10,084 nt of DNA from a virus. Where the stretch lies: the UHGV virus genome UHGV-0216281; one strand, 5' to 3'. The notes under the pieces were generated by a model. The model searched no databases and was not told the origin of the DNA. It saw only the letters and a program-made list of their open reading frames with translations. This document shows, in pieces, positions 1-6,813 of the stretch. The position numbers and the translations under genes are program-made. Within the stretch, counting starts at the first letter, position 1; every line of letters begins with the position of its first letter.

Positions 1-108
1 ACCCCCTTTTGATTTCTTGTTTGACACTTGCAGTTGCCAGACCGCAAGGTGTTTTAACAAATCAAAAGGGGTTTGAATAACTGGCTCAAAGCTGAAAGCT
101 TTCCGGAA

Positions 109-131
109 CCCCCAGCCTAGCTGGGGGTTTT
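109..131 (+). terminator. Intrinsic terminator-like hairpin on the plus strand (cccccagc-cta-gctggggg followed by tttt)
   Basis: 8-bp GC-rich perfect stem at 109-116/120-127 with a 3-nt loop, followed by TTTT at 128-131. No plus-strand ORF lies upstream inside the window, so the transcript it would terminate is unknown. Confidence 0.4.
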
Positions 132-4716: not shown

Positions 4717-5658
4717 TCACCCCCTGAATCCTGCCGGGATCTGGCTGTAGTCCACGTTGTCGTAACTGGCTTTGAAGTACGGGTCTTCGCGTTTTTCGGT
4801 GTACGTGCTGACGGACGGCGATAAGCGCAGGGAAAGCTCATCCCATTTTTCCCGCAACTTCGACGGGCTGAGCACGTTACGGCACCAGAACGGATCGCGG
4901 CTGACGCGGCTGTACATCTCGCAGATTTGTTTGTGAGTACGACCATCCTGCACACACATCAGGCGAATTTCGTTTGCCCATGCTGTCCAGTTAGGTTCTT
5001 TGGGACGAACCACCTCGCCGTCACATTCGGCGGCCTGCTCGTACAGGGCGATGATTTTTTTCCAGAGCCACTGTGCGCAGGTCAAATCATCCTGCGTCCC
5101 CCACTGGCGCTTTTTAGGGCTGAATACAACCGCATCAGGATGGCGAGTTAAAAAATCCTGTTCATCCGTCTGCGTGTCCGGTTGCGAAGCGTCCGGACGA
5201 GAAGGTTTTTTATCTGACGGATCATGTTTTGATTTTACTGACGGATCCCCGCCAGATTCTGACGGGTGAAAACCCGCTTTTTTGCCAGATTTCGACGCAT
5301 CAAATTTTGACGGGTCAGATTTTGATGCGTCAGATTTTGACGGGTCAGAATCTGACAGTTGAGAAAATGCCGCTGCCTGAAGCTTCGCAACGTTAAGCTG
5401 ATAAACATTCGACGCATTGCGGTTACCCTGGCGACGCGCCTTACGCGTTAACCAGCCTTCTGCTTCCAGCCGTGCGATAGCCGTTCTGACGGTACTCATC
5501 CCCGCGCCAATCTGACGGGCAATAGTTTCAATTGATGGCCAGCACACACCTTCGTCATTACTGAAATCAGCCAGGCGGGCCATAATTGCCACGCTGGATA
5601 ATTTCATGCCTGACGCAGCGCAACCATCCCATACATAGCCGGTTAATTTAGTGCTCAT
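4717..5658 (-). CDS. Replication initiation protein, lambda O-like (N-terminal winged-helix/HTH, repeat linker, C-terminal domain)
   Basis: 313 aa. The N-terminus SSVAIMARLADFSNDEGVCWPSIETIARQIGAGMSTVRTAIARLEAEGWLTR is typical of phage and plasmid replication initiator HTH domains. The central low-complexity linker SDPSKSDASKSDPSKFDASKS is encoded by DNA tandem repeats. It sits in the O position after cro and cII. Confidence 0.8.
   Translation of the reverse strand: MSTKLTGYVWDGCAASGMKLSSVAIMARLADFSNDEGVCWPSIETIARQIGAGMSTVRTAIARLEAEGWLTRKARRQGNRNASNVYQLNVAKLQAAAFSQLSDSDPSKSDASKSDPSKFDASKSGKKAGFHPSESGGDPSVKSKHDPSDKKPSRPDASQPDTQTDEQDFLTRHPDAVVFSPKKRQWGTQDDLTCAQWLWKKIIALYEQAAECDGEVVRPKEPNWTAWANEIRLMCVQDGRTHKQICEMYSRVSRDPFWCRNVLSPSKLREKWDELSLRLSPSVSTYTEKREDPYFKASYDNVDYSQIPAGFRG
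5254..5358. repeat. Tandem 15-bp direct repeats (consensus AGATTTTGACGGGTC) inside the O-like gene; candidate origin iterons
   Basis: Units at 5254-5268, 5287-5301, 5302-5316, 5317-5331 and 5332-5346 (the last is a perfect match to the consensus), with a partial unit at 5347-5358 and a degenerate copy at 5231-5247. Four units are contiguous. This parallels the lambda ori iterons embedded in the O gene. Confidence 0.55.
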
Positions 5659-5827
5659 GACCGACCTCTATTTCCCTGAATTTACGACGAAACTGTTCGA
5701 GCGGGCTAAAGCACTCATGCTCATAGCCTTCACGGAGGTAGATAACCCGTTGTGTTTCCGGCTCCCAACGAATGACTCTGACGGGCACTCCGTAGTGATC
5801 TTTGAACCAGCGGTTAACTTGTCGCAA
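5648..5827 (-). CDS. Small hypothetical protein (about 60 aa, TTG start) in the alternative frame
   Basis: The frame is open from 5869; a TTG at 5827 is preceded by GGAGA with a 7-nt spacer. The product [59 protein letters not shown] has a globular-looking composition. It overlaps the 112-aa ORF by about 160 nt and the O start by 11 nt. Confidence 0.3.
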
Positions 5828-6006
5828 AGGACTGTCTCCTTCTGCCGGTTGAAATCCCCCACAGCCCACTCAGCAAAGCTGTGGGTTACAATTTCCCTGT
5901 CACCTGGTACATTTACTGCATAGCAATACTCCACCTTCGCTTTTCCACCCGGTACAGGAAGCGCAATCAGTTGCGAGCGACGGTAGTGTGTTGTTAAACT
6001 GTTCAT
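5668..6006 (-). CDS. Hypothetical protein (112-aa ORF), translationally coupled to the cII-like gene
   Basis: The ATG at 6006 overlaps the upstream stop in an ATGA junction, with a GGAGA RBS 9 nt upstream. The N-terminal half looks protein-like; the C-terminal half is Ser-rich and low in complexity. It conflicts with the 5648..5827 frame. Confidence 0.4.
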
Positions 6007-6560
6007 GCGTTAGTTTCTCCACAACCAGAAGCAATCGACGCCACGACGCCCGGAGCTGCACACTCGCGGGCGTCATTACTTTCTGAAACGCAAAAAATTT
6101 TGTAGACAAGTGCTGCATGCTCCTGCAGCTTCGAAATTGAGAGGTACAGCTCGTCGTTAATTGCTGTCTTCTCATGCGGTTCCACTACACCGTCTTCGAT
6201 TGCCGAACGAATCTGTTTTGAATAACTGCCGATCTGTTCAATGACTTCCAGTAAACGCTGGTTAATATCGGCATTGTCCACATCCTCGACGTCAGGAAGA
6301 GACACAAAGACGCCATTTGCAGACTGCGCCACAGCGTCAGCAATGAAGTGAGTGCCACCAGCACGTTGTAAAATCATTGCCCATCCCAGCGGGAAAATCT
6401 GATCGCCATCGGCACGAAGGCGGTTAAATAATGCGTTCTCTGTTACATCCAGCCACTCAGCAGCTTCAGCGTAACCCCCCGGCAACGCCGCGATAGTTTT
6501 TCTGACAGCTTTCACGTACCACTCAGGCTGTTTTTCCACTTTCCAGTGATGATTACCCAC
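6003..6560 (-). CDS. cII-position regulator (YdaT/CP76-like)
   Basis: 185 aa from a GTG start with a perfect AGGAGG RBS and 6-nt spacer. It overlaps the cro-like stop by 8 nt. It sits directly after cro, as ydaT follows ydaS in the Rac prophage. The family assignment rests on position and recollection. Confidence 0.55.
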
Positions 6561-6813
6561 GGCTTACCTCCTGTTCCTGTGGTTTAAACCCATTCTGGTT
6601 TTGGCTAGATTGAAAACGTGCCGGATAAAGAATCTGCATTTCGCTGATTTCACCCTTAAAAAAATTGGCCAGACGTTCTGCAAGATCGATAGATGGAATT
6701 TGTTCCAGTCTTTCAATACGACTCAGCGTCGCTGGATTGACCTGAACGCCAGCAGCAACATGCTGCAAAGTAAATCCGTGCGCCTTACGCACATTCCGTA
6801 ATGGTGATTGCAT
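6553..6813 (-). CDS. cro: Cro-like HTH regulator (YdaS-like)
   Basis: 86 aa, transcribed divergently from the repressor gene. HTH segment GFTLQHVAAGVQVNPATLSRIERL. GGAGG RBS with a short 4-nt spacer. Confidence 0.75.
   Translation of the reverse strand: MQSPLRNVRKAHGFTLQHVAAGVQVNPATLSRIERLEQIPSIDLAERLANFFKGEISEMQILYPARFQSSQNQNGFKPQEQEVSRG

Follow-up and report, generated by a model that had tools for sequence, protein, structure and literature searches.

Probable out-of-frame overlap of ymfM and a DUF4222 gene in the early operon of an e14-like prophage

UHGV virus genome UHGV-0216281, a stretch of 10,084 nucleotides (nt) called the window here, carries on its minus strand two reading frames that overlap out of register between the genes for a cII-like regulator and an O-like replication initiator. 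Frame A (6006..5668; 112 amino acids, aa) is ymfM, the ortholog of an annotated cell division inhibitor gene of E. coli K-12; frame B (5827..5648; 59 aa) is a DUF4222 gene. Comparative evidence supports both frames as genes. With a probability of about three in four, two translated genes truly overlap out of frame here, in the early-right operon of an e14-like prophage, and selection maintains the arrangement. Selection preserves the amino acid sequence of B, the N-terminal sequence of A, a stop-free A tail and the position of A's stop codon. Nested coding is thus conserved at this locus, which adds an example to the known cases of overprinted phage genes and is not a new kind of system.

A first-pass annotation of the window, made from its letters alone, had located everything correctly: frame A at 6006..5668 with its ATGA junction and ribosome-binding site (RBS), and frame B open from 5869, with a TTG at 5827 and an end at 5648. 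Its description of the frames as mutually exclusive is wrong biologically; the conflict exists for gene callers alone, with only A annotated in K-12 RefSeq and only B by the Prokaryotic Genome Annotation Pipeline (PGAP). It also listed three options without choosing among them: one frame is spurious, a frameshift or pseudogene splits a single gene, or coding is truly nested. The evidence below supports the last and leads to rejection of the other two.

Identity and start sites of the two frames

Frame A runs from ATG 6006 to TAG 5670-5668. Its ATG (6006-6004) overlaps the TGA stop (6005-6003) of ymfL as ATGA (6006-6003), a Shine-Dalgarno (SD) sequence, GGAG (6017..6020), lies 10 nt 5' of the ATG, and the 'GTGGAGAAACTAACGC-ATG' motif at the A start is kept across lineages. 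A is the ortholog of K-12 b1148 (annotated 'cell division inhibitor YmfM' in NC_000913.3): phrog_1170 matches residues 1-112 (E = 7e-69), with a second PHROG, phrog_20047, matching the N-terminal part only, and the synteny is that of K-12 ymfM, directly 3' of ymfL and 5' of a replication gene in an operon divergent from a cI-like repressor. The K-12 e14 gene, like the window's, lies between ymfL and the replication gene and encodes a 112-aa product of near-identical sequence, with a few differences among the tail residues; K-12 (locus L002) also has an intact frame B. The two prophages differ in the replication gene, which is disrupted in K-12 (ymfN/oweE) and intact in the window. Searches for remote homology of A gave no match in Pfam or NCBIfam and no match to a PDB sequence with E < 0.9.

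The two halves of A are unlike each other. The N-terminal module (codons 1-54; 5845..6006, minus strand) is conserved and bears the motif YAV..PG...FAEWxVGD; AlphaFold, run on family alignments, predicts for it a weak beta-beta-beta-alpha-alpha module (predicted local distance difference test, pLDDT, 54-66). The tail is predicted to be disordered: its pLDDT falls below 50 at residue 67 and is 31-37 for residues 71-112, in line with the low complexity that the first-pass annotation had seen in this half. Most of the tail falls in the 160-nt dual-coding stretch (5668..5827, minus strand), in which A codons ~61-112, hypervariable, serine/threonine (S/T)-rich and predicted disordered, share their letters with B codons 1-53. 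The earlier estimate of an overlap of about 160 nt thus holds.

Frame B is set at +2/-1 relative to A. It is open from GTG 5869, has a TTG at 5827 preceded by the SD sequence AGGAG (5840-5836; 8-nt spacer), and stops at TAA 5650-5648, 20 nt past A's stop, the last base of its stop codon lying 8 nt beyond the ATG of the O-like gene. Read from TTG 5827, B is exactly the PGAP coding sequence 'DUF4222 domain-containing protein' (WP_001250269.1) of the identical genome and of all the E. coli matches listed. It matches Pfam PF13973 over profile positions 1-52 of 53 (E = 3.2e-19; 68.7 bits against a cut-off of 27), and a protein search with B returned 139 homologs, nearly all of them PF13973. B is, in short, a full-length member of the DUF4222/phrog_1343 family, whose description is silent on overprinting.

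Where does B begin? K-12 and the consensus of 85 near-identical loci have a T at 5857, which creates an in-frame TGA 5' of the TTG, 9 codons upstream, and other lineages have ATG or GTG at the exact position of the TTG; the start is therefore TTG 5827 and not GTG 5869. A purine-rich, SD-like motif precedes the ATG, GTG or TTG at this position in all 15 loci compared, with a spacer of mostly 5-9 nt (13 nt in L100). The AlphaFold model of B is confident (pLDDT 83), a five-stranded barrel with a short helix, so the globular look of its sequence noted earlier was well judged, and B is predicted to be a compact SH3/Tudor-like barrel; no sequence relatives of B were found in the PDB. Two natural variants of B are on record. 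In 6 of the 85 loci a recombinant 3' end lengthens B (…GHEPV…), and in one IMG/VR locus a C5821T change that is silent in ymfM (Asp62, GAC to GAT) turns DUF4222 Gln3 into a stop, a natural allele suited to separating the genes.

Conservation, stop avoidance and selection

The window is 100% identical to two complete genomes, and the 701-nt stretch around the overlap has matches in 2685 of 5426 complete E. coli genomes, with at least 80% of the stretch covered in 1908 of them; the two-frame layout is therefore not an assembly artefact. For the comparisons that follow, a scan of genome contigs gave six loci and a scan of viral contigs gave near-identical copies, which were used for the population analysis of single-nucleotide polymorphisms (85 loci), while divergent-lineage DNA came from Klebsiella phages, Phytobacter, Pantoea phage AH07, several metagenomic contigs and SfV/ST64B/Stx-type phages.

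Wherever an A-type open reading frame (ORF) reads into B, both frames are full-length: in the window, in K-12 and at L003, L004, L005, L010, L093, L094 and L095, and likewise at L097, L098, L100, L101, L102, L103, L105, L106, L112 and L113. The shared layout consists of (i) an A start right after the cII-like gene; (ii) a B at +2 with its own SD-like motif; and (iii) an A that is open through all of B, and it persists even at 38-45% identity to the window's B. The first-pass annotation had reasoned that homologs with only one frame conserved at intact length would expose the other frame as noise; homologs instead keep both, B down to 38% identity and A as full-length ORFs of 111-117 aa, in 11-12 lineages and down to 42% identity (a protein search with A gave 94 relatives in all).

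The layout also has its variants. At L011 and L012, B is internally deleted, with a C-terminal remnant visible, and A is kept at 75-78 aa, ending at or 8 nt after the downstream ATG. In SfV/ST64B/Stx-type lineages A has no stop and is continuous, in the same frame, with the Rha/Ash gene. In two more distant phages, YeP2 of Yersinia (L110, 1000-1453) and PSTCR8lys of Providencia (L108, 981-1362), the A-like ORF ends before or at the B start. Members of the second group (L105, L106 and L113, from E. coli O121, ETEC-2265 and Salmonella phage ST64B, and the SfV/mEp460/Stx phages) have a different A N-terminus (MNSLTANNRLSQQ…), followed by DUF4222 and then by Rha, Ash or an antirepressor in frame; SfV/ST64B-type phage records show one long protein (ST64B Sb41, 385 aa) and omit DUF4222, and PGAP starts the Rha gene inside DUF4222.

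How many stops should frame A contain where it crosses B? The null expectation was computed from each B protein sequence and the codon usage of the window; on 12 real genes of the window it calibrates well, with 114.6 stops expected vs 101 observed in the +1 frame and 190.6 vs 203 in the +2 frame. For each locus, frame A is predicted to have 1.2-2.5 stops (about 2) across the 53 codons of the DUF4222 core, with a probability of 0.02-0.2 of being open, yet 15 of 15 loci (11-12 lineages) have none, against about 30 expected in total. The third frame over B contains 2-7 stops, as the null predicts, and stops do occur in the register of A where a free-standing DUF4222 gene has no read-through A over it (five in phiNP and one in EKP1). 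The combined probability of an open A is ~1e-6 when the loci are merged, ultra-conservatively and to excess, into 5 clusters, and ~1e-14 when the same per-locus values are multiplied over 11 clusters. At residues that lineages share, their codon identity is mostly 0.3-0.6, near a rough estimate from codon bias only, so that the lineages can be taken as nearly independent at synonymous sites.

The end of A is kept as precisely as its openness. The window's TAG (5670-5668) is made of B's Ile codon ATA (5671-5669) and the next G (5668..5671, minus strand), and all 8 loci of this type obtain A's TAG or TAA in this way, from an ATA Ile codon in B and the G or A that follows it, although ATA makes up just 6 of the 91 Ile codons in genes of the window. 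In L095 and L112, A's stop is made with TTA and GTA instead. This stop lies 9 nt upstream of the O-like ATG and in the same frame, so A and O would otherwise be fused. The A/O junction is TAG-N9-ATG in most lineages and an overlap in others, a typical coupling distance, like the ATGA at the ymfL/A junction. Taken together, these patterns argue that selection keeps A's tail free of stops and A's stop in its position. The shared register has a corollary for the window, where the ATGs of ymfM and the O-like gene (6006 and 5658) are 348 nt apart: the TAG and three codons alone separate the two genes, and read-through of the TAG would yield a YmfM-O fusion.

An antisense ORF (5651..5923, plus strand; 90 aa) also lies over DUF4222 and appears as a 'hypothetical protein' in some Klebsiella phage records (L003 and L005, 1709-1996, minus strand). 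Of 12 lineages, 11 have it free of stops; the expected total is 7.8 stops. As a gene it was rejected: by estimate its openness is largely a by-product, because the codon restrictions that keep A open remove TTA and CTA.

At the level of amino acids, selection appears to act on different parts of the two frames. In the A-only region (codons 2-54), substitutions at codon positions 1:2:3 number 703:672:1377, and the median ratio of nonsynonymous to synonymous differences (pN/pS) is 0.44 in frame A vs 0.98 and 1.18 in the other two frames; among the 85 near-identical E. coli loci, the same region has 14 synonymous alleles vs 1 nonsynonymous. The N-terminus of A thus has the signature of a coding sequence, and it is the only part of A in which selection on amino acids is apparent. 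Within the overlap, the median pN/pS of frame B is 0.36; between the window and a Klebsiella phage, pN/pS is 0.05/0.67; and synonymous sites of B are near saturation between lineages (pS 0.55-0.82), a pattern that indicates strong purifying selection on B. Frame A in the overlap has a pN/pS of 1.28 vs 1.12 for the unused third frame, which points to the absence of amino acid constraint on the tail. The common polymorphisms of the overlap are synonymous in B, such as the one that makes V92A in A (37 of the 85 loci), and those nonsynonymous in B are rare.

Why frame A stays open, and which product is SfiC

If the residues of the tail are free to change, why is the frame kept open? Under the nested-coding reading, translation of A would begin at ATG 6006 by coupling to the stop of ymfL; the active module of the reported SfiC/YmfM division inhibitor would lie in the first ~55 residues of A, and the last ~50 would form an unstructured tail, read in the +1 register over B, while B would initiate independently at TTG 5827 from its own SD sequence. 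The tail could then be an open track or spacer that matters less as a sequence than as a path for ribosomes across B: ribosomes finishing A would be released at the O-like RBS, and translation of the replication gene would be coupled to that of the upstream operon by termination-reinitiation. The precisely placed stop of A would, in addition, block an in-frame A-O fusion. Delivery of ribosomes to the start of the replication gene is the reason that we favor for the open tail.

Several points weigh against this picture. The SfV/ST64B-type A, without a stop before the next gene, fits a frame that stays open but not one that has to end immediately ahead of the following gene. YeP2 and PSTCR8lys have a stop-free +1 frame over B (P = 0.13 and 0.009) even though A ends before or at the start of B, which may reflect recent loss of read-through, an indel error or a weakness of the null. 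The lineages of the stop-avoidance test are not strictly independent. Stop avoidance, moreover, means that frame A is read, and of itself leaves the reason unexplained: the argument for coupling is one of geometry, and B's stop also adjoins the O-like ATG, so that B alone could do the coupling. As to direct evidence of translation for either frame, a literature search on ymfM and ribosome profiling came back empty and no search specific to proteomics was made; the one transcriptome paper found to mention ymfM gives RNA levels only.

The main rival holds that the tail works as a protein, a disordered, S/T-rich segment needed for the activity, stability, localization or turnover of YmfM, and that coupling is irrelevant. 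Constraint would then bear on composition and length only, which agrees with the exclusion of stops and with the tight length of A (111-117 aa in all read-through lineages in which it ends before the next gene); the full 112-aa ORF, the only construct assayed, is active, and in SfV/ST64B-type phages this stretch serves as a linker that leads in frame into Rha/Ash. Against it stand a pN/pS of the tail like that of an unused frame, a V92A polymorphism in 37 of the 85 loci, a composition that is set by B read in the other frame, B-deleted lineages that keep A as a product of 75-78 aa, and relatives from Yersinia and Providencia that end A before B. We regard a functional tail as possible but tentative. 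A more radical alternative sides with PGAP, which annotates only B in the E. coli genomes among the matches listed: B would be the only real gene, and A a chance ORF or a short upstream peptide whose openness follows from the composition of B. A indeed matches no Pfam or NCBIfam family and its tail lacks amino acid conservation, and the open +1 frames of YeP2 and PSTCR8lys, which have no read-through A, also speak for this reading. It is very unlikely, however, given the coding signature of the A N-terminus both between lineages and within E. coli, the lack of any stop where ~30 are expected under a null that fits 12 real genes, the conservation of A's stop by way of a rare ATA codon, and the persistence of A where B is deleted.

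Could the two frames instead be the halves of one gene, split by a sequencing error or by pseudogenisation, or joined by programmed -1 frameshifting into a fusion of the A N-terminus with DUF4222? The first-pass annotation had raised the idea of a fusion, and such proteins do exist in databases, albeit rarely: fusions of 102-119 aa (P0030, P0053, P0059 and P0065) each arise from a 1-nt insertion or a 2-nt deletion. One suitably placed site is a G5 run (5860-5856, minus strand), the only homopolymer of at least 5 bases, where an additional G (G5 to G6) joins the A N-terminus to DUF4222 and gives the 119-aa fusion P0065. These fusions form clusters of 1-14 members vs 1295 for P0003, and are minor variants made by single indels rather than the ancestral state. 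Error and recent pseudogenisation are ruled out by prevalence (a layout 100% identical in two complete genomes, with ~2700 complete genomes matching) and by conservation in distant lineages, down to 38-45% identity of B. Programmed frameshifting fares no better. Frame A contains no X_XXY_YYZ slippery heptamer, as had been noted at the outset; B has its own SD motif and start codon in every lineage; and a shift site has no room, because the B frame is closed 9 codons ahead of its start in K-12 and the E. coli consensus, and a single codon ahead of it in L095 and L098. Conserved RNA structure is also missing: RNAalifold predicted 0 pairs across 13 lineages. A single frameshifted gene, by either route, is extremely improbable. 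A hairpin that would sequester the SD sequence and start of B was considered separately and rejected, as its single-sequence fold (z = -1.9) is not conserved in the 13 lineages; the fold at the O-like RBS is no better than that of shuffled sequence (z = 0.05), and the overlap region has no match to Rfam RNA families.

The overlap bears directly on a phenotype. SfiC is an SOS-inducible division inhibitor that maps to e14 and has been equated with ymfM: cells expressing the ymfM ORF from pBAD24 fail to form Z rings and grow as filaments, an effect that is independent of SulA, SlmA and MinC (Ansari et al., bioRxiv 10.1101/2020.11.19.390815). But which of the two proteins was at work? The cloned ymfM ORF contains the SD sequence and TTG of B and, provided that the insert ended with the stop of ymfM, 53 of the 59 B codons, which make up the whole Pfam domain; the original library clone, D1-8E, carried both genes complete, and the ymfM deletion affects both. 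The published experiments therefore cannot separate the two products, and the preprint describes no mutant specific to one frame, no tag and no western blot (bioRxiv 10.1101/2020.11.19.390815). The division inhibition could thus be due, in part or wholly, to the DUF4222 protein, the better conserved and folded of the two, with A having some other role. We consider this unlikely. In pBAD24, A is driven by a strong vector RBS and an ATG, whereas B relies on its TTG; B from an insert ending at ymfM's stop would lack its last 6 residues; and the predicted fold of B gives no specific link to FtsZ. A is favored as SfiC because it is A that the vector RBS drives in the active construct. A broader proposal, which combines the two issues and is doubtful, is that the e14 SfiC locus is a dual-coding unit in which the C-terminal half of ymfM is open purely as a ribosome track and DUF4222, alone or with YmfM, contributes to the FtsZ-ring block or to control of the replication gene; if true, it would make the functional annotation of b1148 incomplete or misassigned.

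Related systems and neighboring features

Embedded out-of-frame gene pairs are known from several phages, among them lambda Rz/Rz1, the overlapping genes of phiX174 and the MS2 lysis gene, which lies over coat and replicase. The pair in the window resembles them in using an alternative frame on the same strand, an own RBS for the embedded gene and one frame that bears most of the amino acid constraint. Unlike Rz and Rz1, which are both sequence-constrained partners in one function, A contributes to the overlap an unconstrained, predicted disordered tail whose openness appears to be what is selected. Termination-reinitiation coupling at ATGA or stop-N(<10)-ATG junctions is likewise common ground in phage and bacterial operons, and the ymfL-A (ATGA) and A-O (9 nt) junctions share this geometry, as read from the sequence; usually the coupled genes are neighbors, whereas here the upstream ORF would have to span a whole separate gene to reach the junction.

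DUF4222 genes also occur on their own: the members in phiNP and EKP1 are free-standing, whereas B lies inside another ORF except for the 20 nt by which it extends beyond it. The EKP1 case (L111), from a phage whose host is given as Elizabethkingia anophelis, has DUF4222 and a helix-turn-helix (HTH) replication-gene module arranged as in enterobacterial lambdoid phages, a module unexpected in a Bacteroidota host. As regards function, lambda Kil, Rac KilR and Qin DicB are prophage inhibitors of the FtsZ ring (cited in bioRxiv 10.1101/2020.11.19.390815); they are, like A, small proteins of prophage early operons that cause filamentation when expressed, and no sequence or profile similarity between them and A was detected in Pfam, NCBIfam or PDB sequences.

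In the literature searched there is no mention of an overlap between ymfM and DUF4222: papers on ymfM treat the locus as one gene, and DUF4222 is named in just five papers, once or twice in each. Annotation has followed suit, K-12 RefSeq and PGAP each being correct but incomplete at a locus matched in about half of the complete E. coli genomes. The ymfM clones and deletions behind the division phenotype also carry or remove the embedded gene, and YmfM (112 aa) is accordingly its probable rather than its established source. Beyond these corrections, the locus offers a clean, sequence-rich case of overprinting in which selection appears to act on openness and stop position rather than on amino acid sequence, usable for studying the origin of overlapping genes and translational coupling in the early operons of phages.

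The pair sits in the immunity and replication region of an E. coli prophage of the lambdoid, e14/SfII/SfIV-like type. In minus-strand order, a cro-like gene (6813..6553) comes first, followed by ymfL (6003..6560), the cII-like regulator (Phage_CP76; NCBIfam YmfL) and upstream partner of A, then by ymfM (5668..6006), the DUF4222 gene (5648..5827) and the O-like replication initiator (4717..5658; HTH_36; phrog_391); a PerC-like gene, a methylase and further genes lie downstream of the initiator on the same strand. Within the O-like gene, at 5286-5349, a 15-bp tandem repeat of 4.3 copies (consensus CAGATTTTGACGGGT) encodes a repeated DPSKSDASKS stretch; it is iteron-like, as expected of an origin embedded in a gene of the lambda O type. 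At the edge of the prophage segment, positions 6-129 (minus strand) give a full-length match to Rfam RF01405, the Hfq-binding small RNA STnc490 (143.9 bits against a gathering score of 56).

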